Origin: a virus | Virus record (IMG/VR): IMGVR_UViG_3300044742_000148 | Length of the DNA stretch: 56,995 nucleotides | Reading direction: 5' to 3' (one strand) | Notes under the pieces: model-generated | Seen by the model: only the letters and a program-made list of their open reading frames with translations | Told to the model about the DNA's origin: nothing | The model's database searches: none | Shown: positions 10,862 through 48,700 of the stretch, piece after piece | How positions within the stretch are numbered: position 1 is the stretch's first letter | Layout of the letters: every line of letters starts with the position of its first letter | Translations under genes and position numbers: made by a program

Positions 10862-10875
10862 CCAGGCTCGTCCCG

Positions 10876-10908: not shown

Positions 10909-10958
10909 GTAGGCCCCCAACCGGGGGGCGTCACACACAGCCCAAGGAGAGCCCCAAC

Positions 10959-26220: not shown

Positions 26221-26231
26221 GATGCCGCCCG

Positions 26232-30334: not shown

Positions 30335-30348
30335 CCGACGCCGGGCGT

Positions 30349-32090: not shown

Positions 32091-33836
32091 ATGCAGGTGC
32101 TGACCGAGCTTCTGGCCCGTGTGGCCCAGGGCCTCACCGAACTGACCGACGAGGAGCTGGCGCTCCTCCTGGACGAGGTTGTCTCCGAGGCTCTGGCCCT
32201 CGCCGAGACGGACGACAGCGACGAGGCGTTGACGCTGGTGCAGCAGGCCGTGGAGGCCCGCACTGCGATCGTCGCCGAGCAGACGCAGCGTGCAGCTGAC
32301 GCCGACGGCCGGGCGACCCGGGCCGCCGACCTCATCGCCGCCCTCAACGCCGGGCCCGACGACGACCCGGAGCCCGAGCCGGAGCCGGAGCCGGAGGAGC
32401 CCGAGGCCGAGGCGGCCGAGGCCACCGAGGCGGAGATCGCCGAGGTCGTCGCAGAAGCCGAGGAGGTCGTGCAGGAGGCCCTGGAGCCTGTTGCGGCGAG
32501 CTCTGCCCCTGTGGTGTCCCGTGTGGCAGCCCGCCGCCCGGCCAGCCGGGCCGTCTCCCGTGCGCAGGCCCGCCCGGCCCGCCAGGTCGGCTCCGTCGCA
32601 GAGTGGGGCCTCGTGGCCTCCGCCAACGCCCCCGGCACGGTCAACGCCGGAGCGCCTGTCCGCACCGAGGTGGAGCTCGCCGACATGTTCCTGGAGGCTT
32701 GGGCCGCCAGCGAGAGCTACCGGGGCCCGTCCACCTACATCAAGCTCGCCCGTGCAGGCCAGCTCGCCTCTCCCCGCACGTTCGGGGCGGCCCGCTTCCT
32801 CGACCGGGACGAGACGGGCAACGGCCGCAAGATCAGGGACGTGACCAGCGCCGAGGCCATCACGGCCGCCGGGGGCATCTGCGCCCCGGTCGAGGTGCGC
32901 TACGACATCCCGTTCGTCGGCTCGACCGAGCGCCCCGTCAGGGACGCCCTCGTCCGCTTCGGCGCTGACCGTGGTGGTGTCCGCACCATCCCGCCGGCAG
33001 TCATGAGCGAGTTCGAGGCTGGCGTGGACCTGTGGACCGAGGCGAACGACGTCAACCCCACCGACCCGACGGTCAAGCCGTGCCTCGTGATGACCTGCCC
33101 CGAGGAGGAGGAGACGGTCGTTGACGCCATCACCAAGTGCTTGGAGATCGGCAACTTCCGGGCCCGGTACTTCCCCGAGCAGGTCGCCGAGTGGACCCAG
33201 ATGCTGTCCGTCTGGCAGGCCCGCTTCGCCGAGCAGAACCTGATCACCCAGATCGCCGCTGGCTCCACCGACATCTCCGTCGGCCAGGTGCTCGGCACGG
33301 TCCGGACGATCCTGGCCTCGCTCGCCCGGGAGATCGCCGCCGTGCGGTACCGCTACCGGATGCCTCGGAGCTTCCCCCTGCGCCTCCTGTTCCCGGAGTG
33401 GATCTACGAGAACATGAAGGCCGACCTGATCCGGCAGATGCCGGTCGGGACGCTCGAGGAGACGCTGGCCGTCGCCGACAGCACGCTGGATCGGTTCTTC
33501 GCCGCCCTCAACATCCGCATCACCCTCATGAAGGAGGGCGAGACGGGCCAGGGCTTCGGAGCGCAGGGCGACGGGACGCTCAACCCGTGGCCGTCCACGG
33601 TCATCGGCTACATCTTCCCCGAGGGCACGTGGCTGTTCCTCGACGGGGGCACGCTGGACCTGGGCATCTACCGGGACAGCGGCCTGATCGAGACGAACGA
33701 TTACCGCATGTTCTCGGAGACGTTCGAGGCCGCCCACTTCCACGGGCAGTTCTCCCACCGCTTCATCTTCGACATCTGCCCGGACGGCTCGGCGTCGGCT
33801 CTGATCGACATCGACCCGTGCACGCTGGGTAGCTGA
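32091..33836 (+). CDS. Major capsid protein with an N-terminal acidic coiled-coil (scaffold/delta-like) domain
   Basis: RBS aggag before ATG 32091. 581 aa. The acidic PEPEPE/EAEA region is followed by an HK97-like body (AAGGICAPVEVRYDIPF). Position follows the protease. Confidence 0.75.
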   Translation: MQVLTELLARVAQGLTELTDEELALLLDEVVSEALALAETDDSDEALTLVQQAVEARTAIVAEQTQRAADADGRATRAADLIAALNAGPDDDPEPEPEPEPEEPEAEAAEATEAEIAEVVAEAEEVVQEALEPVAASSAPVVSRVAARRPASRAVSRAQARPARQVGSVAEWGLVASANAPGTVNAGAPVRTEVELADMFLEAWAASESYRGPSTYIKLARAGQLASPRTFGAARFLDRDETGNGRKIRDVTSAEAITAAGGICAPVEVRYDIPFVGSTERPVRDALVRFGADRGGVRTIPPAVMSEFEAGVDLWTEANDVNPTDPTVKPCLVMTCPEEEETVVDAITKCLEIGNFRARYFPEQVAEWTQMLSVWQARFAEQNLITQIAAGSTDISVGQVLGTVRTILASLAREIAAVRYRYRMPRSFPLRLLFPEWIYENMKADLIRQMPVGTLEETLAVADSTLDRFFAALNIRITLMKEGETGQGFGAQGDGTLNPWPSTVIGYIFPEGTWLFLDGGTLDLGIYRDSGLIETNDYRMFSETFEAAHFHGQFSHRFIFDICPDGSASALIDIDPCTLGS

Positions 33837-33922: not shown

Positions 33923-34804
33923 GTGGCGCAGTCGCAGACCAACATCACTGCCATCCCCGCCGACCCGCCCCGATACGGCCTGATCCAACAGCTCCTCCGT
34001 GACACCCCCGACGAGCTCCGGGACCGCTTCGTGCAGGGCTGGACGTTCCTGCCGGAGGGCTGCGACCCGTCTGGCGCCGAGCCGGTCATCTGCGCCACCT
34101 CGACGGCTGAGGTGGACGGTGGAGACGGCCCGGCCGTCATCGCCGGGCAGCCCGTTTGGCTGTGGGCGGAGGACAGCTGCTCCACGTTCGGCTTCATGAG
34201 CCGAGACTGGAACGGCCGGGTCCGCCGGGCTCTCGACGCCAAGCAGTCGTACGACCTCGCCCGGGAGCTCTGGGAGGGCGTCGCCAGCCAGATCGGCGGG
34301 CTGGGCAACATGTACCTGAGCGCCCCGGACGCCAACATCGTCACGTCAGGCGCCTTCGCTGTGGCCAAGGGCGTCGGCTGCCTGGAGGCCGCCCTCGCCA
34401 CCGGCCTCGCCGGGCAGCCCGGCCTCATCCACATCACGCCCCAGGCGCTCATGCACCTCGTCACCATGAACGCTGTCCGCTTCGACTCCGGCACGTGGCG
34501 CACCCCGCTCGGGACGGCCGTCATCGCCGACGCCGGGTACTCGGGCGCCGGGCCCGGCAACGAGCCCGCCGGGGACACGCAGTGGGCCTACGCCACGCCG
34601 ATGATCCGGGTGCACCTCGCCGAGGTCATCGTCCGCCCGAGCTCGACCGACGACCGGGAGCAGCTGGCCGCCGCCATGAACATCGGCACGAACCTGATCA
34701 CCGTGCGGGCTGGGCGTCTCGCACAGCTCGTGTGGGCGTCCGAGTGCGTCCACGCCGCCGCCGAGCTCGACCTGCCGGTGTGCGGCTACGGGACGGGCTC
34801 GTGA
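33923..34804 (+). CDS. Virion structural protein, possibly a second capsid-fold protein
   Basis: RBS aggagg before GTG 33923. 293 aa. Position directly follows the capsid gene. The fold assignment is only an impression. Confidence 0.55.
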   Translation: MAQSQTNITAIPADPPRYGLIQQLLRDTPDELRDRFVQGWTFLPEGCDPSGAEPVICATSTAEVDGGDGPAVIAGQPVWLWAEDSCSTFGFMSRDWNGRVRRALDAKQSYDLARELWEGVASQIGGLGNMYLSAPDANIVTSGAFAVAKGVGCLEAALATGLAGQPGLIHITPQALMHLVTMNAVRFDSGTWRTPLGTAVIADAGYSGAGPGNEPAGDTQWAYATPMIRVHLAEVIVRPSSTDDREQLAAAMNIGTNLITVRAGRLAQLVWASECVHAAAELDLPVCGYGTGS

Positions 34805-35899: not shown

Positions 35900-36541
35900 G
35901 TGCCCGAACATTGCTTGCCCCAGGTCCAAGCCATTGCGATGCGGGTGACTGCGCTCGACCTGTCGGGCGTCCCGCTTCCGGGCACGGACACCATGATCGT
36001 CAGCAACGCCCTGTCGTCGCTGGCCGTCTCGCCCGTCTACACCGACGGTGACGAGATCGAGGAGAAGGGCGCCAACGGTGGCGTCTGCGTGAACTACCGG
36101 AGCGCCGACACCTTCAAGCGCCTCGACCTCACCCTCACCCTGTGCACCCCTGACCCGTACCTGGAGGCCGCCATCTCCGGCGGAGACGTCCTGGAGGCCG
36201 GGGGCCTCGTGGGCTTCGCCGCCCCGCCGCTGGGCATCGTGACGGGTGCCGGTGTGAGCATCGAGCTCTGGGCTCTCCGCATCGACAACGGCGCCCTGGA
36301 CGTGGACTCCCCGTACGCCTGGCACGTCTACCCGAGGGTGCAGAACCTGCGCCTCGGCGACTACACCCATCAGAACGGCGCCCTGCTGCCCGTGTTCTCG
36401 GGGCAGGCCGTGGAGAACCCCAACTGGTTCGACGGCCCGGGCAACGACTGGCCCGCCACCAGCGACCGGGTGCACCAGTGGATCGAGACTGCGAGCTACC
36501 CGACGCCTGTCTGCGGGTACACCGAGCTCGTCGCCAGCTAG
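35900..36541 (+). CDS. Abundant virion structural protein (major tail tube-like; assignment uncertain)
   Basis: RBS aaggag before GTG 35900. 213 aa. A 15-bp perfect hairpin follows. RVTALDLSGVP...GVCVNY resembles actinophage major tail proteins from memory. Confidence 0.5.
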   Translation: MPEHCLPQVQAIAMRVTALDLSGVPLPGTDTMIVSNALSSLAVSPVYTDGDEIEEKGANGGVCVNYRSADTFKRLDLTLTLCTPDPYLEAAISGGDVLEAGGLVGFAAPPLGIVTGAGVSIELWALRIDNGALDVDSPYAWHVYPRVQNLRLGDYTHQNGALLPVFSGQAVENPNWFDGPGNDWPATSDRVHQWIETASYPTPVCGYTELVAS

Positions 36542-36614: not shown

Positions 36615-37400
36615 ATGCCGGGCACCTGCGCACCCTGGGCGACCCTCGCCGACGTCTGCTCGCCCTGCGACGACTACGAGTTCGACGCCGGGCTGCTCGG
36701 CGACACACTCCAGTGGGCCAGCGACATCCTGTTCAACCTGACCAAGCGCCGCTGGTCCGGGAGCTGTGAGCAGACGGTCCGCCCGTGCACGGGCCTCGAC
36801 CGCTACCGCTGGGCGCCGACCGGCCAGTACTTCTGCGGTTGTTCCACGTGGAACAGCTGCGGGTGCTCGACTTGGAGCGAGCTGATCCTGCCCGTGTACC
36901 CCGTCACCGAGGTCACGGCCATGATCGACGGCGTGGCCGTGGACGCCGCCCGCATGCGGATCGATGACGGCTTCAAGCTCGTGTGGCTGCCCGACGAGAC
37001 GGACCCGGGCTCCCGGCAGGGGTGGCCGTGCTGCCAGCGGGTAGACGCCCCCCCGACGGAGGAGGGCACGTACGAGCTGACGATCACCTACGGCGAGGAG
37101 CCGCCCATCGGGGGCGTCATGAGCGCCGCCATCCTCGGCTGCCAGCTCGCCCTCGGCTGCCAGCCCGAGACGATCGGGGCGTGCCGCCTCCCCAAGCGGG
37201 TGACCGCCATCACCCGCCAGGGCGTGACGGTGGCCGCCGTGCTCGACCCTCTGGAGCTGTTCGCCAAGGGCCTGACGGGGCTCCCCGAGGTGGACCTGTG
37301 GGTGCAGTCCGAGAACCTGGGGCAGGCGTCCAGGGGGGCGACGATCTTCCAGCCCGGCCAGCGGACCCGACAGTCGTACCGGCGCCCGGGGAGCTTCTGA
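36615..37400 (+). CDS. Head-to-tail adaptor (putative)
   Basis: MPGTCAPWATLADVCSPCDDYEFD...TVRPCTG...PVYPVTEVTAMIDGV matches the actinophage adaptor pattern as I remember it. Confidence 0.55.
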   Translation: MPGTCAPWATLADVCSPCDDYEFDAGLLGDTLQWASDILFNLTKRRWSGSCEQTVRPCTGLDRYRWAPTGQYFCGCSTWNSCGCSTWSELILPVYPVTEVTAMIDGVAVDAARMRIDDGFKLVWLPDETDPGSRQGWPCCQRVDAPPTEEGTYELTITYGEEPPIGGVMSAAILGCQLALGCQPETIGACRLPKRVTAITRQGVTVAAVLDPLELFAKGLTGLPEVDLWVQSENLGQASRGATIFQPGQRTRQSYRRPGSF

Positions 37401-37436
37401 CCGGGAAAGTTTCCGCATCTGGGCAGGTTCGGGGGC

Positions 37437-37468
37437 GTAGACGGAGCGGCTAATCGCTGTTAGTCTGG
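37437..37468 (+). promoter_or_regulatory. Phage promoter/operator motif copy G
   Basis: GTAGAC-N6-GCTAATCGCTGTTAGTCTGG (one-base-shorter spacer, variant centre). Confidence 0.55.
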
Positions 37469-37660
37469 ACCTGTCGCAAAGAGCTCCCGCCCCCGGCCCG
37501 TAACGGAGGCCGAGGCACCACCCGGTCGGTAACGCAGACCGGGAAGGGGGCTCCGAGCGGCCCGACCCCGAGGGGCGGCAGGGACGCCGGATGCAAACTG
37601 CCTGCGTGACCCGCCCCGGGGGGCCGGACCCCAACCCAGCACGAGGCCAGGAGGCCCACC
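37469..37660 (+). promoter_or_regulatory. ~190-nt structured 5' leader with twin hairpins that display GTAACG loops
   Basis: Hairpins are cggcc-cgtaacgga-ggccg (37494..37512) and cccggtc-ggtaacgca-gaccggg (37521..37543). RBS aggagg precedes ATG 37661. Confidence 0.4.
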
Positions 37661-38134
37661 ATGAGCAAGACCCAGCCCACCCTCACCATCACCGTCCCCG
37701 GCCGCTTCCTCATGGCGGAGGCCCCCAAGGGCGCCAAGGTCGTCAAGCCCGGCACCCGCCAGTCCACGGTCGAGTTCACCTCGGCGCAGCTGATCGAGTT
37801 CATGGCGAAGGCGGCCCACTTCGCCAACCACAAGAACTTCAGCCCGGTCCCGGCCGACCTGTGGCCGGTCATCGACTCGGCCCGCAACACGGTCAAGGCG
37901 CTCGACGCCAACGCCGCTGTGGCGGAGTTCCTCGGCATCCAGGGCCCCGTCGTTCCCCGGACGGCCCCGGCCCCCGAGGTCATCGAGGTCCCCGAGTCGA
38001 TCACCATCGTGGTCGAGACGCCGGACCCGGCCCCCGAGGTTGGCGACATCGACCCGGTCGCAGTGAAGCGGGCTGCCCGCAACGCCGCAGCCCGTGAGCG
38101 CCGTGCAGCCAAGAAGGCGAAGGCGAACGCCTGA
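37661..38134 (+). CDS. Hypothetical protein with a basic Ala/Lys-rich C-terminus
   Basis: ORF 37661..38134. RBS caggagg. Confidence 0.65.
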   Translation: MSKTQPTLTITVPGRFLMAEAPKGAKVVKPGTRQSTVEFTSAQLIEFMAKAAHFANHKNFSPVPADLWPVIDSARNTVKALDANAAVAEFLGIQGPVVPRTAPAPEVIEVPESITIVVETPDPAPEVGDIDPVAVKRAARNAAARERRAAKKAKANA

Positions 38135-38210
38135 CCCTCAGGGGGGGAGACCTCGCCGGGTGCGGGAAACGCCCCGGGGCAGGAAGGCTCCCCCCCACCT
38201 GGTCCAAGCA

Positions 38211-38254
38211 GCGCCCCCCGTCCACACCAGGGCCGGGGGGCGCTCTGCGTTCTC
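38211..38254 (+). terminator. Intrinsic terminator candidate
   Basis: 10-bp stem gcgccccccg/cggggggcgc (38211..38243) followed by tctgcgttctc. Confidence 0.5.
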
Positions 38255-38260
38255 GGGGCC

Positions 38261-38281
38261 GCTAACCCCGGTAACGTCTGG
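38261..38281 (+). promoter_or_regulatory. Degenerate promoter motif copy I (leaderless configuration)
   Basis: GCTAACCCCGGTAACGTCTGG. The -10-like ACGTCT at 38274..38279 lies 6 nt before ATG 38286. Confidence 0.4.
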
Positions 38282-38285
38282 CGCC

Positions 38286-40052
38286 ATGCGCATCGCCTAC
38301 ATCGGCAACTTCACCCGCCCCTGGTGCACCGAGGTCCACGTGGCCGCCGCCCTCACCGAGCTCGGCCACAGCGTGGTCCGTCTCCAGGAGAACCGCACCC
38401 AGCTCGACCAGCAGACCAAGGCCCTGCTCCACGGGGGCAACCGGCCGGGCCGCCTCGGGCAGGCGCCCCCGGACCTGTTCATCTGGACTCGCACGTGGGG
38501 CGTGCCGCCCGCCCAGGCGAACGGGATGCTGGAACAGCTGCGGGCCGCCGGGGTGCCCATCGTGTCGTTCCACCTGGACCGCTACCTCGGCATCGAGCGT
38601 GAGGGGATGGTGGACTCGGAGCCGTTCTTCCGGACGGACCTCCTGTTCACGCCCGACTCGGGCGACTGGGCCGCCCACGGTGTGCGGGCCCACTGGATGC
38701 CGCCGGGGGTGGACCGGGCCGAGGCCAACGCCGTGTACCGGCCGAACCCCAAGCGGTGGCCGTGGAAGGTGGTCATGGTCGGGAGCTTCCCGTACCCGCA
38801 CCCCGACTGGCACCCGGTACGAGCGGAGGTCGTCTCTCATCTGAGAGCCCGTTACGGAGACGCCTTCGCCGTGCTGCCCGCCGATCAGGGGGGCCGACCG
38901 ATCCGCAACGCCGACCTGGGGGAGCTCTACGCCACCGTGCCGGTGGTGGTGGGCGACAGCTGCTGGGCCGGGATGGCCGACGACCCGGGCGGCTACTGGT
39001 CCGACAGGGTGACCGAGACGCTGGGCCGGGGCGGCTACCTCATCCACCCGCACAGCGCCAAGCTCGCCGAGATGTACCCCGACCTCGCCCTCTACAGCCT
39101 GGGCAACATGGACGAGCTCGGCACGCTGATTGACGAGGTGCTGGAGCCCCCGAACGACCTGATCGCTGCCGCTGTGGCGAGGGCCCGGGTCCGCAACAGG
39201 GAGCTCGTGCTCGGCCGGGACACCTACGCCCACCGCATGGAGGAGCTTCTGGTCACAGCGATGGACGCCGCCCAGATCAGGGAAGCGTCCCGGCCTGTGC
39301 CGCCAGCCCCTCCGCCGAGGGCCCTGAGGAGGGCCCCTCGTGTGCCGGAGAGCCCCGAGGTCGCCGCCGCTGCCCAGACGGTCACTGGCACCTACCGGCC
39401 CCGCAGGCTGCGTCATACGTTCCGCTGGGCTGAGGGCGTCTCCGACAGCCACGCCGTCAAGGAGGTGTGGGACAACGACGACTACGGGATGGCCGGGCTT
39501 CCGCTGGCCGGGGCGACCGTCATCGACGTCGGCGCCAACCTGGGCGCCTTCTCCGTGCTGGCGGCCATGCTCGGCGCCCGAGACGTGCACGCCTACGAGC
39601 CTCACCCGGAGACGTTCGCCTGCCTGCTCGAGAACGTGGCGGCCTGCAGGGTGGCGAACAGGATCACGTGCCACAACCACGCCGTGGGGGGCTGGGCCCG
39701 GGTGGATGCGCTGGTGGGCTCTGGGGGTGGCGCTCACATCGGGGCCGGGGTGGACGGGCCCGAGGTGGCTGTGCTCGACATCTCGGCCGTGCTGGAGCCG
39801 GTCCAGGGGGAGGTCGTTCTGAAGCTGGACTGCGAGGGCTCCGAGTACGAGATCATCGACGGGCTGGCCGACGCTGACTGGGCGAAGGTCAAGGCGGTGG
39901 TGATGGAGTGGCACGGGCCCGGCATGCCCCACCTGGCCCACATCGACCTCGACCGCTGGGGGCCGATGGTCCAGCGTCTGGCCGACCACGGGGCGTTGAC
40001 GATCAAGGGCCACCCGCATCTGGGTGGGCTTCTGTGGTGCAGGAGGTACTGA
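38286..40052 (+). CDS. Fusion of a CgeB-like glycosyltransferase domain and an FkbM-family methyltransferase domain
   Basis: Internal ATG 38286 of ORF 38094..40052. The N-terminal part ends ...DRVTETLGRGGYLIHP...RDTYAHRMEELL. The C-terminal part has VIDVGANLGAFSV...MEWHG. Confidence 0.7.
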   Translation: MRIAYIGNFTRPWCTEVHVAAALTELGHSVVRLQENRTQLDQQTKALLHGGNRPGRLGQAPPDLFIWTRTWGVPPAQANGMLEQLRAAGVPIVSFHLDRYLGIEREGMVDSEPFFRTDLLFTPDSGDWAAHGVRAHWMPPGVDRAEANAVYRPNPKRWPWKVVMVGSFPYPHPDWHPVRAEVVSHLRARYGDAFAVLPADQGGRPIRNADLGELYATVPVVVGDSCWAGMADDPGGYWSDRVTETLGRGGYLIHPHSAKLAEMYPDLALYSLGNMDELGTLIDEVLEPPNDLIAAAVARARVRNRELVLGRDTYAHRMEELLVTAMDAAQIREASRPVPPAPPPRALRRAPRVPESPEVAAAAQTVTGTYRPRRLRHTFRWAEGVSDSHAVKEVWDNDDYGMAGLPLAGATVIDVGANLGAFSVLAAMLGARDVHAYEPHPETFACLLENVAACRVANRITCHNHAVGGWARVDALVGSGGGAHIGAGVDGPEVAVLDISAVLEPVQGEVVLKLDCEGSEYEIIDGLADADWAKVKAVVMEWHGPGMPHLAHIDLDRWGPMVQRLADHGALTIKGHPHLGGLLWCRRY

Positions 40053-40324
40053 TGCTGGGGCGTGTGGCGCTGGTGAAGGTGCGGGCGACCGCCGAGAGCG
40101 TGGATCCGGAGACGGGGGTGCGCCGCTTCTGGCGGATCGAGTCTCGCCGGGCGCACCTGGAGGAGACCATGGTGGGGCAGATGGGCGGTTGGCCCGAGAT
40201 GGTGCTCTCCCTGGGCGTGGCCAGCTTCTACCAGGCCTCGGGCGTTACGCCCGACTGCACGTTCGCCTGGGCGGAGGACGAGGCCACCTTGGCCGAGCAC
40301 TTCCCCTGGCACGAGGAGGGCTGA
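40052..40324 (+). CDS. Hypothetical protein
   Basis: ATG 40052 in a TGATG overlap. Internal start of ORF 39908..40324. Confidence 0.55.
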   Translation: MLGRVALVKVRATAESVDPETGVRRFWRIESRRAHLEETMVGQMGGWPEMVLSLGVASFYQASGVTPDCTFAWAEDEATLAEHFPWHEEG

Positions 40325-40345
40325 TGATGCCTGTACTGATGGAGC

Positions 40346-40501
40346 GTGACCGACGAGGAGCTCCAGGCGATGGGCGACTACTGCATGGCGCTGCTGGAGG
40401 AGGGAGGCCGGGTCGAGGAGGTCTACTGGCTGCTGGTGGAGGCCCGGGAGAGGGGGAGCTGGCGTGGACCCTCTGATGATCGTGAGCCCCCACCTGGATG
40501 A
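40346..40501 (+). CDS. Possible small protein (below the ORF-track cut-off)
   Basis: Hand translation: VTDEELQAMGDYCMALLEEGGRVEEVYWLLVEARERGSW... GC3 is high up to about 40460. ATG 40370 is an alternative start, preceded by gaggag. Confidence 0.35.
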   Translation: MTDEELQAMGDYCMALLEEGGRVEEVYWLLVEARERGSWRGPSDDREPPPG

Positions 40502-41138
40502 CGCCGTGCTGTCCTGCGGGCAGCTGATGGCCGGAAGGCCCGACTGCGTGGTGGTGACCGTGTTCGCCGGGGCGCCGCTCAACGTGCAGACCACCCCCTA
40601 CGACGAGGCGTGCGGCTTCCGGGACAGCGACGAGGCGCTGACGCTCCGCCGGGACGAGGACGCCGAGGCGTGCGCCCGTCTCGGGGCGACACCGATCCAT
40701 CTGGACTTCCCTGACGGCCAGTACGAGCCCAAGCAAGAGCTCCTGTTCCACATCACCGACAAGCTCCTGCGGACGTGGGAGGCGCTGGGGCGCCCCCCAG
40801 TGCTCGGCCCGGCCGGGCTGATGCACCCCGACCACGAGCAGGTCGCCGCCGCCTGCATCAGGGCGTTCGGCTGGCAGGCCCGCTGCCCGGAGCTGTACGT
40901 CTACGAGGAGCTTCCCGCCCGGGTGCTGTGGCCGGAGAGCGTGGAGCCCGCTCTGACCCGCTGGGAAGTGGGCACGGTGCACCATTACGCCCCGGGCTTC
41001 CTCGGCACCGGGTCCAAGGTCCGCAAGGCGGCCGCCATCAGGGCCTACCGTAGCCAGATGCCTCAGATCGCCCCGCTGGGGGATGGCGCCGGGCGGACGT
41101 GCCTGTTCGTTCCCGAGCGCTACTGGAGGCCGTCATGA
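40476..41138 (+). CDS. PIG-L/LmbE-family deacetylase
   Basis: MIVSPHLDDAVLSCG (PHxDD), RRDEDAEACARLG and HPDHEQV. GTG 40464 is an alternative start. Confidence 0.8.
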   Translation: MIVSPHLDDAVLSCGQLMAGRPDCVVVTVFAGAPLNVQTTPYDEACGFRDSDEALTLRRDEDAEACARLGATPIHLDFPDGQYEPKQELLFHITDKLLRTWEALGRPPVLGPAGLMHPDHEQVAAACIRAFGWQARCPELYVYEELPARVLWPESVEPALTRWEVGTVHHYAPGFLGTGSKVRKAAAIRAYRSQMPQIAPLGDGAGRTCLFVPERYWRPS

Positions 41139-41686
41139 TCCGGCTCAACGTGGGCTGCGGGCTCGACGTGCGAGACGGCTGGGTCAATGTCGATCTTGGC
41201 TCGTGGGACTACGACCCGGAGGGGCCCGACGCCGACCTGGGGCCCCGGCTCGTGCTGCCGCCCGGGGTGCTCTACGCCGACGCCGCCGAGGACCTCGGGG
41301 AGTGGCACGGCCGGTGCGAGACGGTCCTGCTCAACCACGTCCTCCACATGCTCCCCTACGACCAGGCCGACGTGGCGCTCGACCAGTGCGCCCGATGCCT
41401 GGCGCCGGGGGGCGAGCTCGTCATCGTGGAGGCAGACGTCCTGGGCGTCATCGGTGGGCCGAGGGCCAACTGGCCTGTCGCCGAGCTCGTCGCCGACGAC
41501 GTGGAGCCGACGGTGCAGGGCAAGTTGCTCCGGTGGGCCGTCTGGCACGGCACCCGCCGCTCGCTGTGGAGCGTGGAGAGCCTGATCGAGCGGCTGACCC
41601 GCCGGGGCCTGGAGGCCGACGAGACGGAGGCCATCTGGGGCCGGGAGGCCGAGTCGTTCGCCGTGTTCGGGGCCCGGCCCGAGTGA
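41135..41686 (+). CDS. Class I SAM-dependent methyltransferase
   Basis: ATG 41135 in an ATGA overlap. Motif I LNVGCGLD. Post-I/II region LAPGGELVIVE. Confidence 0.65.
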   Translation: MIRLNVGCGLDVRDGWVNVDLGSWDYDPEGPDADLGPRLVLPPGVLYADAAEDLGEWHGRCETVLLNHVLHMLPYDQADVALDQCARCLAPGGELVIVEADVLGVIGGPRANWPVAELVADDVEPTVQGKLLRWAVWHGTRRSLWSVESLIERLTRRGLEADETEAIWGREAESFAVFGARPE

Positions 41687-42726
41687 AGGTCGGGCTCGTC
41701 GTCCGGGCGGACAACCGAGGCCTCGGGAACGTGACGTGGGAGGCCGCCCGCCACCTCGACGTAGACCGCATCCTCATCGTTCGCATGGGGGGCTCCCAGG
41801 CGTTCGGGGGCTGGCACCCGGAGCGGTACGAGGGGCTGGCCCGCTGGGTGATCACGCTGCCGTTCGACGGCCACCAGCTCGACAAGCGCCACGTGGTCAA
41901 CTGGCTGGACGGCCTCGACGTGGCGTACAGCGCCGAGACGTTCTACGACTGGCGGATGGTCGAGTGGGCCCGAGAGCTCGGCGTGGGGACCGTCTGCCAC
42001 GTGATGCCCGAGTTCTTCAAGCACCACCGGCAGAAGGACTTGCCGCCACCGACGGCGTGGTGGGCGCCGACGCCGTGGCGTCTCGACCAGCTGCCGAACA
42101 GCACCCGGCTGGTGCCGGTGCCGGTGGCGCTGGACCGCTTCCCCGACGCCTACGAGCCGTACACGGGCGGAGAGCTCCGGGTGCTCCACCCGGCCGGGAA
42201 GCTCGCCATGGCCGACCGGAACGGCACCCGTCTCCTGCTGATGACGCTGCGCCGAGCGAAGCGCCCGATGACCGTGACGGTCCTGAGCCAGGACGGGCAG
42301 GTGCCCGCCTACCGGCAGGTCACCCGGCACATCACCCTCGACGTGGTGAAGGGCGACCGGCCGCACTACTGGGACGGCTACTACGGCCACCACCTGTGCG
42401 TCATTCCCCGCCAGTACGGAGGGCTGTGCCTGCCCGCCCAGGAGGCCGCCGCCGCCGGGCTGCCGCTGATGATGACGGACTGCTCGCCGAACGACTGGTA
42501 CCCGGCCGAGCTCCTACCGGCCACGCTGACCGGAGCTGTGGGCGCCCCCTGTGGGCCGCTGGCCACGTACCGGCCCGACCCCATGAAGCTCGCCGCCCGT
42601 CTCGACGCCATCACCGCCGACGAGCTCGGGGACCTCGCATGGCAGTCGTTCGCCTGGGCCCAGGCCCACTCGTGGGAGGCGCTGCACGAGCTCTGGCTCG
42701 CCGAGCTCGCTCTGGCCGCCGGGTGA
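41683..42726 (+). CDS. GT-B fold glycosyltransferase (GT4-like)
   Basis: GTG 41683 in a GTGA overlap. GGLCLPAQEAAAAGLPLMMTD resembles the GT1/GT4 donor-binding region. Confidence 0.6.
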   Translation: MKVGLVVRADNRGLGNVTWEAARHLDVDRILIVRMGGSQAFGGWHPERYEGLARWVITLPFDGHQLDKRHVVNWLDGLDVAYSAETFYDWRMVEWARELGVGTVCHVMPEFFKHHRQKDLPPPTAWWAPTPWRLDQLPNSTRLVPVPVALDRFPDAYEPYTGGELRVLHPAGKLAMADRNGTRLLLMTLRRAKRPMTVTVLSQDGQVPAYRQVTRHITLDVVKGDRPHYWDGYYGHHLCVIPRQYGGLCLPAQEAAAAGLPLMMTDCSPNDWYPAELLPATLTGAVGAPCGPLATYRPDPMKLAARLDAITADELGDLAWQSFAWAQAHSWEALHELWLAELALAAG

Positions 42727-43688
42727 TCGACGCCTTCGCCAGCCTGCCGCACTACGCAGAGCACCTGCTGCCCGTCTGGGAGGCGCTCCCGGAGGGGGCC
42801 CGAGGGACGTTCTGGAAGGCCGGGCCGTACATGGCTGACCAACCGGGCAGCAACCTCCCCAACGGCCGTCTCCGGGCAGTGGGGGCCGCCACTCCGGGCA
42901 ACCTCGTGATGGTGGCCTCCGCCGGGGACACCCAACAGCTCCCCGGCCGCCGCTTCGTGCTCGTGGAGCACGGCGCCGGGCAGACCTACGAGGGCATCCG
43001 GTCCCGGTCGTACTCCGGCTCCCACGGGTGGGACGACGCCGTCCTGTTCCTCACGCCCAACGAGACGGTCGCCGGCAGATGGCGAGCCCGCTACCCGGCC
43101 GCCCGGGCTGTCGCCGTGGGCTGCCCCCGTCTCGACTTCTGGCACCGCAACCGGGCCGCCCGGCCGATGACGGTCGCCGTCACGTTCCACTGGGACAACC
43201 CGCTGCTGCCCGAGACGAGGTGGGCGTTCCCGCACTTCAAGGCCGGGCTGGAACAGCTCCGGGACGACTGCGCCGCCCTCGGCTACGAGTTGATCGGCCA
43301 CGGCCACCCTCGGGCGTGGGGCATGCTGTCCCGCTGGTGGGGGGCGTTCGGCATCACCCCAGCCGAGAGGTGGCACATGATCGCCGGGTGCGAGGCGCTG
43401 ATCGGCGATAACACCAGCGCCCTCCCCGAGTTCGCCTCCCTCGGCAAGCCCGTCGTTTGGATGAACAGCCCCAAGTACCGCCGGGACGTGCACCACGGGG
43501 GCCGCTTCTGGGAGTGGCCCGCCGGTCAGCCCCAAGCGGACGGGCCGGGAGAGCTCCGGGGAGCTCTGGTGCGGGCCCTGTACGGGGAGGGGGAGGAGAG
43601 CCGACGGCGCATGGTGCGGAGCATCTACTGTGCGACGGACGGGCACGCCGCCGAGCGTGCCGCAGCCGCCATCCTGGAGGTCCTGTGA
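42723..43688 (+). CDS. TagB/TagF-like glycerophosphotransferase or glycosyltransferase
   Basis: GTG 42723 in a GTGA overlap. VLVEHGAGQTY, VGCPRLD, TFHWD and LIGDNTSALPEFASLGKPVVW. Confidence 0.45.
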   Translation: MIDAFASLPHYAEHLLPVWEALPEGARGTFWKAGPYMADQPGSNLPNGRLRAVGAATPGNLVMVASAGDTQQLPGRRFVLVEHGAGQTYEGIRSRSYSGSHGWDDAVLFLTPNETVAGRWRARYPAARAVAVGCPRLDFWHRNRAARPMTVAVTFHWDNPLLPETRWAFPHFKAGLEQLRDDCAALGYELIGHGHPRAWGMLSRWWGAFGITPAERWHMIAGCEALIGDNTSALPEFASLGKPVVWMNSPKYRRDVHHGGRFWEWPAGQPQADGPGELRGALVRALYGEGEESRRRMVRSIYCATDGHAAERAAAAILEVL

Positions 43689-43945
43689 ACCCGTACGCCA
43701 GCCGCCCCGACCAGGCCCCCCGGATGTCCGTCCCCGAGACGGAGAGCAAGATGGACCAGCTGCAGCGCCGCCTCCGGCAGCTGGGCGCCACCGGGGAGGA
43801 GTCGCTGGCGCTCCTCGAGCACTGGTATCAGGACACCGACGACTGGGGCGACGAGGACCGGGCCCGCATCATGCGCTCGTCGGACACGGCTCTCCGGGCG
43901 ATGATCGTGCAGGTGCGGAAGGAGTGGGCTGATGCAACCGGGTGA
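43685..43945 (+). CDS. Hypothetical protein
   Basis: GTG 43685 in a GTGA overlap. Internal start of ORF 43457..43945. Confidence 0.55.
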   Translation: MNPYASRPDQAPRMSVPETESKMDQLQRRLRQLGATGEESLALLEHWYQDTDDWGDEDRARIMRSSDTALRAMIVQVRKEWADATG

Positions 43946-44465
43946 CCGCCTGTTCGCCTGGTGCCAGGCGGTCATGGACGCCTTGGAGGCGTGGGAGATC
44001 GCCAACACCGAGGGGTGGCTGCTCCCGGCCCGCCGGGTGATCAGCCACGGGGCGCCCGCCTGGGACTGCGAGCTTGTCGCCGTGTGGGCCGAGGGGACCA
44101 TCGGCTACGAGGGCGACGTGAGCCTCCCGACGTCAGGCCCGCTGTCGCCGTCGGCGCCTCGCTCGATGCGGGTAGCCACGCTGGGCGTCACCATCGTCCG
44201 CTGCGACCTCAGCGCCGCCGAGCTCGACCTGCGAGGAGGGGAGGCGGAGCTCCCGTCGGCCGCTTCCGTGACGAACACGGCCCAGCTGACCTACCAGGAC
44301 CAGGCGCACGTGATGAACGCCCTCCTGGCGAAGGATCAGAGCGCTGGCCGCCCGTTCGGCGTGCACCAGTGGTCGCCGAACGGGTGGGCGCCCGAGGGCC
44401 CCGACGGGGGGCTCGCCGGGTCCACGCTCCGCATCAACGTGGCTCTGGTGATCCCGGTCGCCTGA
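43932..44465 (+). CDS. Head-tail connector / tail completion protein (putative, by position)
   Basis: ORF 43932..44465. 14-nt overlap with the upstream gene. Lies upstream of the HK97 gp10-like gene. Confidence 0.5.
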   Translation: MQPGDRLFAWCQAVMDALEAWEIANTEGWLLPARRVISHGAPAWDCELVAVWAEGTIGYEGDVSLPTSGPLSPSAPRSMRVATLGVTIVRCDLSAAELDLRGGEAELPSAASVTNTAQLTYQDQAHVMNALLAKDQSAGRPFGVHQWSPNGWAPEGPDGGLAGSTLRINVALVIPVA

Positions 44466-44932
44466 TGGCGCTCAAGGGGAGCTTCGCCGGGCACGTCGTC
44501 ATCGACAACCGGGCGCTGAACCAGGTGCTCCACGGCGCCTCCGGCCCGGTGGCGAAGGCGCTCCTCGTGGCGGGGGACATCGTGAAGGCCGGGGCCCGAC
44601 GCCGGGTGGGCGTCTACAAGCGTGCGCCGGGCGACCCGCTTCCCCGCTCGGGAGGCCGCCGACCGGGCACCCTCCGGGACAGCATCGTGAAGCGCCTCGT
44701 CGTCGGCGGGCCCGAGGGCGTCAAGGTGCTGGTGGGCTCTGAGGACCCCATCGCCCTCCTCCACCACGAGGGGACCATCCCCCACAGGATCACCGCCCGC
44801 CGCAAGCCGTTCCTCGTGTTCTACTGGCCCGCCGCCGGGAAGGTCATCCGCATCAGGTCCGTGAACCACCCGGGCACCCAACCCAACCGCTACCTGGCCG
44901 ACAGCCTCCCCGACTTGCGGGCCCGCTTCTGA
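44465..44932 (+). CDS. HK97 gp10-like head-tail joining protein
   Basis: ATG 44465 in a TGATG overlap. LLHHEGTIPHRI...VNHPGTQPNRYL. Confidence 0.65.
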   Translation: MALKGSFAGHVVIDNRALNQVLHGASGPVAKALLVAGDIVKAGARRRVGVYKRAPGDPLPRSGGRRPGTLRDSIVKRLVVGGPEGVKVLVGSEDPIALLHHEGTIPHRITARRKPFLVFYWPAAGKVIRIRSVNHPGTQPNRYLADSLPDLRARF

Positions 44933-44948: not shown

Positions 44949-45380
44949 GTGACCCGTCATCGTGACTTCGCCGTCATCTCCGCTGAGCCCGAGCCTCTGT
45001 CTTTCACCGTGTCCGGTATCCGGGTTAGCACCGGGGAGCCCTGGTCCGAGACGTTCAAGTGCTGGCCTCGCATCGCACCCCAGGCGATGGCCGACCTTGC
45101 CCTGGCGATGCGGGTGACGCCGGAGGGCGAGCGCATCTGGAACGCCGGGGCTGTGATTGGGTTCGTGCGCCGGGCGCTGATGGACGTGGAGCCGGTCGCC
45201 GTCAACGGGGAGACGCCCCCGTTCGACCCGACCCAGATGGCCAAGTCTCAGCGTGGCCGCTGGCAGGCGCTCGTGAACGACTCCGACCGGGCCCTCAACA
45301 TGCAGGACGACCTCGGGCCGATCCTCCTGTGGCTGGCGGAGGAGTACACGGGCCGCCCTACCGAACCGCCCTCCACCTGA
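44949..45380 (+). CDS. Tail assembly chaperone (G-like)
   Basis: First of two overlapping ORFs directly upstream of the tape measure gene. GTG 44949. Confidence 0.6.
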   Translation: MTRHRDFAVISAEPEPLSFTVSGIRVSTGEPWSETFKCWPRIAPQAMADLALAMRVTPEGERIWNAGAVIGFVRRALMDVEPVAVNGETPPFDPTQMAKSQRGRWQALVNDSDRALNMQDDLGPILLWLAEEYTGRPTEPPST

Positions 45381-45715
45381 CGGCTTGGGCGGTCACGAAC
45401 AGCAGCTACTGCAACGCCAAGCTGACCACCCTCGGGGTGGACCGAGAAGCGCTGACCCTCGACTCGCTGTGCGACCTGATCCACATGCTGATGGTCGAGA
45501 CGGCCCACCTTCCTCACAACCGGGTGGCAGAGCTCGTGGACCAGCCGTTCTGGATCGAGCGGGACACGTGGGGGCAGGGTCCGGTGTCCGAGGCCGCCCA
45601 CCGTGCAATGATGGCGCTGACCGGGGGCCCAGCCCCCCTGCGTGACCCGTCAGCCCAGCGCCCCCGGCCCGTCGGGACGGTGGTGCCCGAGACGCCCCAG
45701 GAGAGCCCGGCATGA
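45377..45715 (+). CDS. Tail assembly chaperone -1 frame extension (T-like; no start of its own)
   Basis: The -1 frame is open from 45059. There is no ATG or GTG near 45377. The stop overlaps the tape measure ATG (ATGA). I could not pinpoint a slippery site. Confidence 0.45.
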   Translation: MTAWAVTNSSYCNAKLTTLGVDREALTLDSLCDLIHMLMVETAHLPHNRVAELVDQPFWIERDTWGQGPVSEAAHRAMMALTGGPAPLRDPSAQRPRPVGTVVPETPQESPA

Positions 45716-48700
45716 CCGTGGTTGGCGAGGCCTTCGTCGTCATCCGCCCCGACGACGACAAGTTCGTCCAGGAGCTCTCCCAGATCAACCTCAGCAAGGC
45801 CGGGCAGAAGATGTCCCAGCAGCTGAGCAACGCCCTGGAGACGGTCGGCGCCGACCTCCGCCGGGAGATCGAGCAGGAGCTCGGGGCTGTCCCCGACACA
45901 CTCGACGTGGACGTCCGGGTGGACGCCAACACCGCCCAGGCGAGCTCCGCCATCCGCAGCCTGGAGGCCCAGGGCGAGGGCCTGGACATCAACGTGCCGA
46001 TTGACGCCGACGCCGACCCGCTCCTGGCGGACATCAAGCGCATCCAGCGTGAGGCGGAGATCGCCGAGGACCGCCTGGTCCGCATCGGCCGGGCCGGGGA
46101 CACCTTCGTGTCCGCCGGGCAGAAACTGAGCGTCGGGCTGACCCTCCCGCTGATCCTCCTCGGCAAGCAGGCCATCGGCATCGCCACAGACGTGGAGACG
46201 ACCCTCGCCCAGACCATCGGCCTCGCCGGGGGCACCGCCGAGCAGGTCGAGCAGGCCAACGTCGTCATCCGGAGCCTGGCCGGGGAGACGGGCAAGAGCC
46301 TGACCGACCTGTCCGAGGCGCTGCTGGCCATCTTCTCCGCCGGGTTCACCGGCCAGCAAGCCTTCGACGTCCTCGACGCCTCAGCCCGGGCCGCCGCCGC
46401 CGGGCTGGGCGACACCAGGGACGTAGCGAACGCCATCACCGGAGCTGTCGCCGCCTACGGGCCCGAGGTGCTGAACGCCGCCCAGGCGACGGACATCCTC
46501 GTCAACACCGTGAAGGAAGGCAAGGCCGAGGCGTCCCAGCTGGCCCCCCAGTTCGGCCGTCTCCTCCCTCTCGCCGCCGAGCTCGGAGTGGGGTTCGATG
46601 ACGTGGGCGCCGCCCTGGCGTTCCTGACCCGTGAGTCGGGGGACGCCTCCCAGTCGGCCACCGCCGTTGCGGGCATCCTCCAGAAGCTCGTCAAGCCGAC
46701 CCAGCAGGGAGCCGAGGCCCTGTTGGCCGCCGGGTTCTCGAGCGAGAGCCTCCGGGAGAGCCTGGCCGACCAGGGGCTGCTCGGCACCCTCCGGGACGTC
46801 CGCAAGGGCCTGGAGGAGACGGGCGGCTCGCTGGGCGAAGTGTTCGAGGACGCCGAGGGGTTCGTCGGGGTGCTGTCCCTCACCCGGGAGGAGGGCGCCG
46901 CCGTCGATGCCGTGTTCAACAACCTGAGCAACAGCGCCGGCACCCTGGACTCCGCCTTCGGGGCGTTCGATGCGACCAAGGCCGCCGAGCTCGCCAAGGC
47001 CTCCGCCACCGCCCAGACGGCCCTCGCTGACATCGGCAACGTCGCCTTGCCCGTGCTCGCCGAGGTGCTGAGCCTGTTCGCCAAGGGCGCCGCCCTGTTC
47101 TCCGCCCTGCCAGCGCCGCTGCAGACGGCCGCCGTGGGAGCTCTGGCGCTGGCCGCCGCCCTGGGGCCGGTCATGATCATCGGCGGGAAGATCCTCCAGA
47201 ACTTCGGCACGATCCAGACGGCCGCCGGGAAGCTCGGCAACAAGCTCGATGATGTCTTCGGGGCCGGGTCGGGCGCCAAGTTCGCTCGGGCCGCCGGGGG
47301 CCTCGCCGCCATCGCTGTCGGCGTGGAGGTCATCCAGAACCGCATCCAGTCGGACCAGGGCGACACCGAGGACTTCCTGGGGGGCATCGTTGACGACGTG
47401 AATGCCGCCATCTCCAGTGGGAACTTCGACACGCTGGCCGCCAAGTTCACTGCGGTGGCCGACGCCCGGAACGAGCTCGCCGAGGACGCCAACCGGGCCA
47501 TCGACCCGTTCAAGCGGAAGCAGCTGACCGAGGCCGTCACTGGGCTCGACTCGATCCTGGCGGCCATGAACGAGACGTCCATCGGCGCCGACGACCTCGC
47601 CGTGCAGCTCGGCATCACCAAGGACGAGGCGCTGGCGCTCGGCTTCCAGGGGGCCGACGCCATCGCCGCCTTCAAGGCCCAACAGACGGACCTCGGCATC
47701 CAGGTCGATCCGATCGTGGCGGCCCGCACAGCGCTGGACGAGCTGACCCTTGCGTTCCTCCGGGGGACGGACACCGAGCAGCAGTTCGCCGAGGTGTCGG
47801 CGCTGACCAACATCCCGGTCGAGGACCTGCACGAGAACCTGGGCAAGCTCGCCGACAAGGCCCGGGAGCTCGGGGACGCCTTCGTGGAGGGGCTGGGGGG
47901 CGTGCAGGACGCCTTCGCCACCACGTTCGGCGACGAGGCCAAGGACACGGTCGATGCCTTCCTGACCAACTACGCCAAGCAGGTCACCGACGCCGCCTCG
48001 TTCACGGTCAACCTGCAGAAGCTGATCGCCCGGGGCGCCACCGACCTCGCCCAGACGTTCGCCGAGCAGGGGGTGGGGAGCGCCGGGCTCGCCGCCGAGG
48101 CCGCCGCCGCCTCAGACGTCGCCCTGGCCGACATGGAGACGAGGTTCGACTTCATCTCCCTGCAGGAGGACACCGCTGAGGCCCGCCAACGGGCGTTCGC
48201 CACCCGCATCACCGACGGGACGCTCCGTCTCGTGGAGGAGGCCAACCAGACCGCTGAGGGCCTGTTCGGCCCGGAGGTCGCCGAGACGATCGGGCCTCGC
48301 CTCGCTGCCGCTCTGGAGCAGGGGGACGAGGCGTTCTTCGCCGAGCTGGACGCCATCGCCGCAGAGGCCAAGCTGCGCTCCATCGCCATCGGCGAAGGGG
48401 TGGGGGAGGGCACGGCCGAGGGGCTGGCGAACAGCATCGCCGCCATCAAGGTCGCCGCCCAGGCGGTCATCGACGCCACGCTGGGAGTGTTCGGCGCCGG
48501 GTTCCAGCTGGGCAGTCCGAGCCGGGTGATGATGCGCATCGGCGGAGACGTGGCTGAGGGCTTCAACATCGGCCTGAACGAGGGACTGTCGGCCCCGGAC
48601 CTGACCGAGTTCACGAACGCACTCCCGAGCGCCGCTACGAGCGCCGCCCAGGCGCTCTCCCTGGGAGCGAGCTTCGGCGCCTCTCCGGCAAACCTCGGGG

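Follow-up and report, generated by a model that had tools for sequence, protein, structure and literature searches.

A cassette of predicted glycan-building enzymes in the head module of a phage genome is a candidate pathway for virion glycosylation

Introduction

What is a run of sugar-modifying enzymes doing among the genes that build a phage particle? The question is raised by IMG/VR virus record IMGVR_UViG_3300044742_000148, a stretch of 56,995 nucleotides (nt) that is here called the window, in which a cassette of glycosyltransferase (GT), methyltransferase (MT) and PIG-L deacetylase genes (38286-43688) lies in the middle of the virion structural genes. A preliminary description, made from the nucleotide sequence alone, viewed the cassette as an inserted and separately transcribed unit that might glycosylate virion proteins or a surface protein. 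Here we examined its enzymes, their conservation and their neighbors in related viral contigs. We favor, with moderate confidence, a late-expressed, cytoplasmic glycan-building pathway that belongs to the head-morphogenesis module and whose most likely role is the O-glycosylation of virion proteins during their synthesis, the capsid being the likeliest target and the tail tube a possible one.

To our knowledge, phage virion glycosylation has been shown so far only for a few mycobacteriophages. The virion glycans of mycobacteriophages form a shield that alters antibody recognition. O-glycans are present on the capsid and tail tube of the mycobacteriophages Che8, Corndog and Myrna (Freeman et al. 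2023, cited in PMC12363180 and PMC11256854), and in Corndog the MT and GT genes are found inside the structural operon, flanked by the portal and protease genes (PMC4351075). The precedent of GT/MT virion glycosylation on which the preliminary description drew is real.

Results

Gene content and enzyme families of the cassette

The cassette genes are all on the + strand and mostly translationally coupled. ORF1 (38286-40052, +) encodes a 588-residue protein with an N-terminal CgeB/YkvP-type GT-B glycosyltransferase domain and a C-terminal FkbM-family S-adenosylmethionine (SAM) methyltransferase domain, identified by Pfam, NCBIfam and PHROG matches. Beyond two small open reading frames (ORFs) lie genes for a 220-residue PIG-L/LmbE-family zinc de-N-acetylase (40476-41138, +, with an alternative GTG start at 40464; PF02585) and a 183-residue class I SAM-dependent methyltransferase (41135-41686, +; PF13489, PF08241). 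These are followed by genes for a 347-residue GT4-type GT-B glycosyltransferase (ORF6; 41683-42726, +) and a 321-residue TagF-like, PF04464-related phosphotransferase with a minimal soluble GT-B core (ORF7; 42723-43688, +), both assigned from homologue annotation, profiles and AlphaFold2 (AF2)/Foldseek structure comparison. Successive genes overlap as ATGA at the PIG-L/MT junction and as GTGA at the MT/GT4-like and GT4-like/TagF-like junctions, in agreement with the gene run and the coupling given in the preliminary description. No hydrophobic segment of the membrane-span type was found in any cassette protein, and by their sequences the proteins look soluble.

Four assignments (Glyco_trans_1_2, FkbM, PIG-L and class I MT) came directly from curated profiles. 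The GT domain of ORF1 (residues 199-322) matched PF13524 Glyco_trans_1_2 with 33.5 bits (cut-off 25), and its MT domain (residues 414-546) matched PF05050 FkbM with 47.9 bits (cut-off 22.7) and TIGR01444 (FkbM) with 82.5 bits (cut-off 37.7; E = 3.8e-23). PHROG matches of ORF1 were to phrog_28745 'glycosyltransferase' (9e-26) and phrog_8156. We take PF13524 to be linked to CgeB, and BFVD protein names agree. About 120 homologous GT-FkbM fusions were identified, and in some relatives the GT stands alone or is fused to Methyltransf_23 or Methyltransf_11; the pairing of a CgeB-type GT with a predicted methyltransferase recurs with methyltransferases of different families. The PIG-L protein matched PF02585 with 50.5 bits (cut-off 28.2; 3.9e-13), and its translation contains the zinc-binding motifs SPHLDD and MHPDH, which align with Dbv21. 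Its nearest solved relatives are Dbv21 and Orf2*, teicoplanin/A40926 enzymes that deacetylate peptide-linked N-acetylglucosamine (GlcNAc). The class I MT gave a marginal match to PF13489 (29.6 bits versus a cut-off of 27) and also matched PF08241.

Searched as single sequences against Pfam, PHROG, NCBIfam and PDB, ORF6 and ORF7 gave no match or sub-threshold matches; ORF6 scored 17.3 bits on the GT4 Pfam model (cut-off 27), and ORF7 had no Pfam match at E ≤ 0.01. We therefore relied on metagenomic homologues, of which 382 were found for ORF6 and 439 for ORF7. Among the matches listed, most ORF6 homologues (42-54% identity) carry PF00534/PF13692 and most ORF7 homologues (43-57% identity) carry PF04464; a relative in one locus, L030, matched PF04464 with 23.7 bits (cut-off 22.1). 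The homologue profile of ORF6 matched the GT4 mannosyltransferase 7qsg at 2.5e-5. That of ORF7 matched the teichoic acid polymerase TarL at 5.7e-4, with GHgHPr aligned to MHPF and DNtSAlpE aligned to DYSSLIYE (the HP and D-x-S-S motifs of the C-terminal domain), and residues H195, P196, D229, N230, S232 and E236 of ORF7 were invariant across 61 sequences.

Predicted structures pointed in the same direction. The AF2 model of ORF6 (predicted local distance difference test score, pLDDT, 94.4) gave Foldseek matches to the GT4 GT-B structures 6eji, 7qsg, PimA, PglA, MshA, BshA and ManT, with TM-scores normalized to the query (TMq) of 0.61-0.73. Glu254 of ORF6 is invariant and lies in an LPxQEA motif corresponding to the EX7E region, and the second Glu of EX7E is absent. 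The AF2 model of ORF7 (pLDDT 94.4) had as its top Foldseek matches TagF 3L7L/3L7I (TMq 0.70-0.71), Cps3D and TarL, with TarM also among the matches and uridine diphosphate (UDP)-GlcNAc 2-epimerases scoring almost as high as TagF. The model thus has the fold of TagF, with its two Rossmann domains. ORF7 is approximately 80-90 residues shorter than the TagF catalytic fragment, and the TM-score normalized to the target is only ~0.58. A fold search against BFVD returned only generic GT-B matches (TM ≤ 0.56). The BFVD match A0A127AW81 of Bacillus phage SP-15, annotated as a cytidine diphosphate (CDP)-glycerol:poly(glycerophosphate) glycerophosphotransferase, reached a TM-score of only 0.35 to ORF7. 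At the level of homologue annotation, homologue profiles and modeled structure, ORF6 is confirmed as a GT4-type GT-B enzyme and ORF7 as a TagF-like protein. Profile searches likewise upheld the other enzyme families named in the preliminary description, which had guessed the last two from motifs.

The cassette is part of a conserved gene order in the head module

PHROG matches assigned the virion module of the window to the 'major capsid hexamer/pentamer' lineage, which is found in phages of Gordonia, in Mycobacterium cluster B and in relatives of these. The slot of the cassette is bounded upstream by the head-tail adaptor gene (36615-37400, +; phrog_783, 2.8e-39), followed by one extra gene, and downstream by the connector (43932-44465, +; phrog_810) and Neck1/tail completion (44465-44932, +; phrog_5) genes, after which come a tail assembly chaperone (44949-45380, +) and a tape measure (45712-48834, +) gene, both assigned by position. 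This is where the preliminary description had placed it. The cassette has the same direction as the connector and tail genes and is continuous with them.

We compared the window with relative viral contigs and loci from JGI/IMG/VR, Logan and NCBI metagenome-assembled genomes (MAGs), labeled L followed by a number. The order adaptor, GT, GT4, TagF-like, connector was kept in ~20 related metagenomic phage contigs, whose enzymes are ~32-76% identical to those of the window. Two IMG/VR contigs have the cassette in the same place, with enzymes 58-76% and flanking structural proteins 63-95% identical. More distant JGI, Logan and NCBI MAG contigs (enzymes 32-57% identical), one of them deposited as 'Phage 71_18', have the order adaptor, CgeB-type GT (with or without FkbM), GT4-like, TagF-like, connector, neck, chaperone, tape measure. 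The G+C content (GC) and the GC of third codon positions (GC3) of the cassette equal those of its flanks. Because the composition is like that of the flanks, the order is conserved and the identities are comparable to those of the structural genes, we judge from these comparisons that the cassette is an old, syntenic piece of the head module. A recent horizontal insertion was rejected on the composition and the kept order, and with it the earlier view of an 'inserted' cassette. GC skew is positive over 39001-42000 (+0.04 to +0.11) and negative across most of the genome, with GC and GC3 unchanged; this shift probably reflects amino-acid composition rather than a foreign origin.

Comparison of the relatives also indicated which parts of the cassette are constant. 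The minimal cassette, in L010, contains three GT-B enzymes only, the CgeB-type GT, the GT4-like enzyme and the TagF-like enzyme, and by this comparison these three form the core, with PIG-L and the methyltransferases as accessory parts. PIG-L and the class I MT occurred together in L004, L006, L009, L020 and L082, which fits a deacetylate-then-methylate pair. Other parts in relatives were a second GT4 (L009) and C-methyltransferase-like and Methyltransf_24 proteins (L008). In its modular variation the cassette resembles glycan-diversifying loci.

A discrete family of TagF-like proteins is linked to phage head genes

To define the TagF-like family we used an exhaustive profile search clustered at 50% identity, which returned 1,160 clusters at E ≤ 1e-30, 1,331 at 1e-10 and 2,486 at 1e-3. 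From these counts by threshold, with canonical TagF matched only weakly, the family is discrete and stands apart from canonical TagF enzymes. TagF-like relatives were encoded by 164 IMG/VR contigs and gave eight matches among 185,579 species genomes, all on MAG contigs. They also occur on low-GC viral contigs (L026, GC 0.36; L045, GC 0.31), one of which is 115 kb long, so the family is not limited to high-GC actinophage-like genomes. Among 50,697 deposited phage records a single homologue was found, in Virus Rctr41k, where it is annotated as 'hypothetical' and lies just after the capsid/protease gene; homologues of PIG-L and the GT4-like enzyme were not detectable in the same records. A megablast search of positions 38000-44000 against these records gave no match, indicating no close phage at the DNA level. 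Full-text literature searches turned up no account of such an enzyme set in a phage, nor of TagF-like or PIG-L enzymes among phage structural genes. These results agree with the earlier remark that the enzyme combination is richer than what has been described for phages.

The neighborhoods of 82 TagF-like loci were then analyzed. Virion or packaging genes were present within the available flanks of 73 of the 82 loci, and on both sides of 30 of the 45 loci that have at least 5 kb on each side. A capsid gene was identified at 40 of the 82 loci, at a median distance of ~4 kb. In unrelated HK97-type lineages (Pfam: Phage_capsid, Phage_portal, S49 or S78 protease), the TagF-like gene lies directly 3' of the capsid gene. 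Within the hexamer/pentamer lineage the slot varied, being pentamer-adaptor in L044, L047 and L064, upstream of the capsid gene in L086 and L090, and after the terminase gene in L055-L058, with the link to head genes kept. The gene before the TagF-like gene encodes a GT-A enzyme in L030 and a methyltransferase in L081. In L081 a stop-to-stop frame of ~900 residues (8810-11512) carries GT4 (PF00534/PF13692) and PF04464 domains, which suggests a GT4-TagF-like fusion; if true, this would be a Rosetta-stone argument that the two enzymes are functionally coupled. The representative proteins P0241, P0315 and P0356 (700-890 residues) also contain a TagF-like module. The head-module linkage of the family in several lineages strengthens the case for a virion target, which is plausible and better supported than before.

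Small ORFs of the cassette and the adjoining extra gene

Two small genes were included in the run by the preliminary description. The first, hypA (40052-40324, +), encodes an acidic 90-residue protein with no family; its start was corrected to ATG 40052, which overlaps the ORF1 stop codon (TGATG) and has GGAGG upstream, and its GC3 is 0.93. It is missing from L004, and unrelated small ORFs fill its slot in L006, L008 and L010. By these features hypA is probably a real, lineage-specific gene. The second, hypB (40346-40501, +; 51 residues), is doubtful as a gene because it has a GTG start, a low GC3 (0.79 versus 0.92-0.95 in its neighbors), an overlap with PIG-L and no conservation. No homologue of hypA or hypB was found in any relative locus compared. 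A third small ORF, hypC (43724-43945, +), encodes an acidic 73-residue protein conserved in closer relatives; with its start corrected to 43724 it follows the TagF-like gene after a 35-nt gap, and its end overlaps the connector gene. Homologues of hypC lie beside the TagF-like gene in L004, L013, L006 and L016, making it the only conserved small ORF of the cassette; its product may serve the cassette as an accessory or belong to the connector side. Neither hypA nor hypC had a match in Pfam, PHROG or NCBIfam.

The extra gene between the adaptor gene and the cassette (37661-38134, +) encodes a 157-residue protein with no family match, a P/E/V-rich center and a basic Ala/Lys/Arg tail. Among the relatives compared, it was found in the window and L004 only, and it is absent from more distant relatives. 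Since the two versions share only 31-33% identity, the gene appears to be fast-evolving.

The region upstream of ORF1

Two hairpins follow the extra gene in the intergenic region (38135-38285). The first is GC-rich and 56 nt long (38141-38196, +). The window contains a single copy of it, without an Rfam match, and ~52 of its 56 positions are identical in L004 (2489-2544), where the upstream gene is only ~31% identical and the remaining intergenic sequence has diverged. The second, also GC-rich (38210-38244, +), has 14-bp arms that are 93% complementary and a 7-nt loop, is followed by CTGCGTTCTC, and has a fold z of -3.15; a different GC-rich hairpin occupies the equivalent place in L004. Neither hairpin carries a T-tract, a scan for consensus terminators and sigma-70 promoters called nothing at 38135-38285, and an Rfam scan of 37400-44200 gave no meaningful match. 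The preliminary description had placed a terminator before the cassette; the hairpin is real and from its sequence looks like a terminator or attenuator, but it lacks the T-tract and the consensus call. The hexamer TAACGT (38272-38277, +), 8 nt upstream of the ORF1 ATG, is a possible -10 element that recurs in L004 as TAAGGT, 7 nt upstream of the ATG. The ORF1 start has no Shine-Dalgarno sequence. The leaderless promoter of the preliminary description, with this hexamer as its putative -10, is a hypothesis for which the recurrence in L004 speaks.

Two further observations bear on whether the cassette is transcribed on its own. No terminator was found between the TagF-like gene and the connector genes, so any transcript begun before ORF1 would also serve the tail genes. 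In the distant contigs L006, L008, L009 and L010 the GT starts at most ~60 nt after the adaptor gene, which indicates that the hairpins and putative promoter of the window belong with gene 37661-38134 and not with the cassette. On both counts the autonomous run with its own promoter, as first described, did not stand.

Genomic context of the cassette

The window has a GC content of 71%, with all recognized genes on the + strand, and looks like a siphovirus genome of the actinophage type. The other assigned virion genes are portal-like (30139-31944, +; phrog_859), major capsid hexamer (32091-33836, +; phrog_777), pentamer-type (33923-34804, +; phrog_779) and major tail protein (35900-36541, +; phrog_792). 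Just 5' of the portal-like gene, a 1,374-residue ORF (25944-30068) had no Pfam matches. Near the ends of the window are genes for an IstB-like ATPase (186-836), a Mu Gam-like protein (53877-54623) and an AAA_24 protein (54946-56076). Protein family scans detected no integrase anywhere in the window. A 4.5-kb IMG/VR contig from sample 3300011440 exactly matches a piece of the early region, which points to a metagenomic origin.

Two features of the early region were recorded. A cluster of the DNA-hypermodification type encodes a Tet_JBP dioxygenase (7358-8317), an amino-acid:DNA transferase (ADDT; 8314-9252), an Asp/Arg-hydroxylase-like protein (9249-10316), a P-loop nucleotide kinase3 resembling 5-HMUDK (10298-10861) and a DUF932 protein (10959-12011). 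The gene content of this cluster (7358-12011) points to phage DNA in which thymidine or cytosine is hypermodified. Further downstream is a Thr-rich protein (12529-13086), which had been noted in the preliminary description and does exist. A signal peptide forms its N terminus, its long mucin-like repeats are T/P-rich (28% Ser+Thr), and it also has an LPVTG sortase motif of the LPXTG type, a hydrophobic anchor and a basic tail. Pfam gave no match, and the protein is predicted to be a phage-encoded, secreted, cell-wall-anchored protein.

Discussion

A proposed pathway for modification of virion proteins

Window scans found no flippase, lipid-carrier enzyme, cytidylyltransferase or nucleotide-sugar gene. 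With no membrane segments in the cassette proteins and no export or donor genes, we infer that the enzymes work in the cytoplasm on host-supplied activated donors, at a late stage of infection and in parallel with head assembly. O-glycosylation of virion proteins is the most economical explanation. The glycan, its acceptor, the donors and the order of steps can be proposed as follows. The GT4-type enzyme would transfer an N-acetylhexosamine or hexose from a host nucleotide sugar onto a protein or growing glycan. PIG-L would then strip the N-acetyl group to leave a free amine, following the GT-B-then-PIG-L logic of mycothiol, bacillithiol and teicoplanin biosynthesis, and the coupled class I MT may methylate that amine or a hydroxyl. 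The CgeB-type GT would attach a further sugar, which its fused FkbM domain would O-methylate. Lastly, the TagF-like enzyme would add a phosphodiester-linked substituent from a host CDP-activated donor, for example glycerol phosphate from CDP-glycerol, with C. difficile CD0244 as the model.

Several points weigh against a virion target. Gene position is what indicates it, and proximity to structural genes is not rare for phage genes; the glycan and its acceptor are predictions. The major tail protein showed neither a Ser/Thr-rich tail nor another evident acceptor motif. The cassette enzymes are non-homologous to the proven enzymes of Che8 and Corndog, so homology gives no ground for transferring function. 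The acceptors of canonical TagF, TarM and PimA-type enzymes are polymers or lipid-linked molecules of the cell envelope. The DNA-hypermodification cluster is encoded by this same phage, and Bacillus phage SP-15, whose hypermodified DNA bears sugar and phosphate groups, encodes the protein annotated as a CDP-glycerol glycerophosphotransferase. The Thr-rich LPXTG protein is a less likely acceptor for the cassette because it is secreted and encoded ~25 kb away in the early region, while the cassette enzymes appear soluble and cytoplasmic.

Comparison with known systems

By its proposed function, the cassette is closest to mycobacteriophage virion glycosylation, although its enzymes place it outside that system. 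It resembles the gene clusters of Che8 (gp108-110) and Corndog (gp35-38) as a phage-encoded GT and MT cluster in an actinobacteriophage-type genome, and it lies among structural genes as in Corndog. The slots differ, being adaptor/connector for the cassette and portal/protease in Corndog. The enzymes also differ. In Che8 and Corndog they are GT2/GT25 GT-A glycosyltransferases and methyltransferases (Pfam: Glycos_transf_2, Glyco_transf_25, TylF/Methyltransf_24), whereas the cassette has three GT-B enzymes, FkbM and class I MTs, and PIG-L. Homology to the proven enzymes was rejected on these Pfam families. Among cultured phages, homologues of the CgeB-type GT domain (~30% identity) were detectable only in the Dryad group of Streptomyces phages (Dryad gp34 GT and gp36 MT; also Yara, Wentworth, Gibson and others), in which an MT is also nearby. 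However, the GT and MT genes of Dryad lie after the tail and lysis genes and not in the head module, they have no GT4-like, PIG-L or TagF-like partner, and their function is also only putative.

The flagellin glycosylation locus of C. difficile offers another parallel and, for the last proposed step, a direct precedent on a protein-linked sugar. There the TagF-like protein CD0244 is required for a complete type A flagellin glycan, and it is proposed to move phosphothreonine from a CDP-activated donor onto O-GlcNAc, beside a methyltransferase (PMC10714395). Like CD0240-CD0244 (PMC10714395, PMC4441256), the cassette encodes a GT, a TagF-like enzyme and a SAM methyltransferase; the C. difficile pathway is cytoplasmic, acts on a self-assembling structural protein and ends with the methyltransferase. 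It has its own cytidylyltransferase and phosphatase, neither of which the cassette encodes, and its initiating GT is a GT-A enzyme; the two are likened by enzyme type. The TagF-like protein shares the fold of TagF, TarL and Cps3D (PF04464; PDB 3L7I, 8VA1, 8QOY), with TM ~0.65-0.71 normalized to the query and an HP and D-x-S-S region that aligns with TarL. In contrast to these enzymes it is only 321 residues long, is without the additional region found in the TagF catalytic fragment and belongs to a phage-restricted subfamily; its acceptor is probably not a lipid-linked polymer. The adjoining of a GT-B enzyme and PIG-L recalls MshA/MshB, BshA/BshB, Orf2* and Dbv21, which make small molecules or antibiotics. 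Unlike the Msh, Bsh and teicoplanin pairs, PIG-L in the cassette is accessory and is followed by a methyltransferase, not by a ligase or acyltransferase.

Alternative functions of the cassette

It is unlikely, in our view, that the cassette instead remodels the envelope by acting on lipid-linked teichoic-acid or wall-polymer precursors at the cytoplasmic face of the membrane, an activity that could block re-adsorption to debris or superinfection, or aid release. The nearest characterized folds are those of TagF, TarL and Cps3D, which polymerize wall teichoic acid and capsule; the envelope enzymes PimA and PglA are among the GT4 matches and TarM is among the TagF-like matches, and prophage-encoded wall teichoic acid glycosyltransferases such as S. 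aureus TarP exist. However, window scans found no membrane-binding segment, flippase, ligase or lipid-carrier enzyme, and the shortness of the TagF-like protein relative to the TagF catalytic fragment, with its low target-normalized TM-score, does not favor envelope remodeling. The family is also essentially absent from bacterial genomes and prophages (8 matches in the 185,579-species set), and its head-module position in several lineages is not that of lysogenic-conversion genes. A prophage or lysogenic-conversion reading was rejected, since no integrase was found and the only matches among species genomes were on those eight MAG contigs.

The DNA-hypermodification cluster raises a second alternative, in which the cassette glycosylates or phospho-decorates hypermodified bases downstream of the 7358-10861 gene set; we consider this quite improbable. 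The window does encode Tet_JBP, ADDT, the hydroxylase-like protein and P-loop kinase3, the DNA glucosyltransferases of the T4 type have a GT-B fold, SP-15 combines sugar- and phosphate-bearing DNA with a TagF-annotated protein, and the sample of the closest relative contains both clusters, on separate contigs. Set against this, the two clusters in the window are ~28 kb apart, the 7358-10861 gene set resembles a complete thymidine-hypermodification pathway, and the head-module position of the cassette is conserved across lineages. The nearest solved relatives of PIG-L act on peptide-linked GlcNAc, and the structural match to the SP-15 protein is weak. Among the matches listed, which include 13 TagF-bearing contigs of 52-225 kb, no contig was common to the TagF-like and kinase matches, a weak test by a pattern-based scan.

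It is highly improbable that during infection the cassette makes a soluble small molecule, for instance an amino-sugar conjugate resembling mycothiol, bacillithiol or an aminoglycoside, instead of modifying a macromolecule: a GT4 enzyme with PIG-L is the signature of MshA/MshB, BshA/BshB and aminoglycoside pathways, and MshA and BshA are among the GT4 structural matches, but PIG-L is missing from many cassette-bearing relatives, no ligase, cyclase or aminotransferase genes are present, and the head-module position and the TagF-like hallmark are left unexplained. We give equally little credence to a moron that is transcribed separately, between a promoter and a terminator of its own, and whose function is unrelated to the virion. 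The hairpins and the conserved TAAnGT hexamer before ORF1 in the window and L004 speak for it, but its transcript would run on into the tail genes, the GT follows the adaptor gene closely in four distant contigs, the composition equals that of the flanks and the TagF-like family is absent from prophages.

Implications for phage virion glycosylation

Returning to virion protein glycosylation as the preferred function, we tentatively extend it to the TagF-like family as a whole. These proteins may form a large, previously unrecognized, phage-restricted family that places teichoic-acid-type phosphodiester substituents on capsid-linked glycans, of which the lineage of the window would have the most elaborate version, a zwitterionic coat of methylated amino-sugar and phosphate. 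Glycosylated virions would then have a second origin, evolved independently and with a new chemistry, and this route would be common in viromes from soil and sediment.

If the proposed pathway is true, virion glycosylation arose at least twice, from unrelated enzyme sets. De-N-acetylation, two methylations and a phosphodiester-linked group could be part of the new chemistry, and no phage particle has been described with any of these. Compact soluble enzymes, among them the 321-residue TagF-like core and the GT-methyltransferase fusions, would be on offer for glyco-engineering of phage particles. The use of a glycan coat to a soil phage that never meets antibodies is a question raised by this work, and stability, adhesion or evasion of host capsid sensors are speculative answers. 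The modification would be far commoner in uncultured high-GC phages (164 IMG/VR contigs and ~1,160 clusters) than the cultured collection indicates (one unannotated homologue in 50,697 records), and a function would be assigned to a large family of 'hypothetical' head-module genes.

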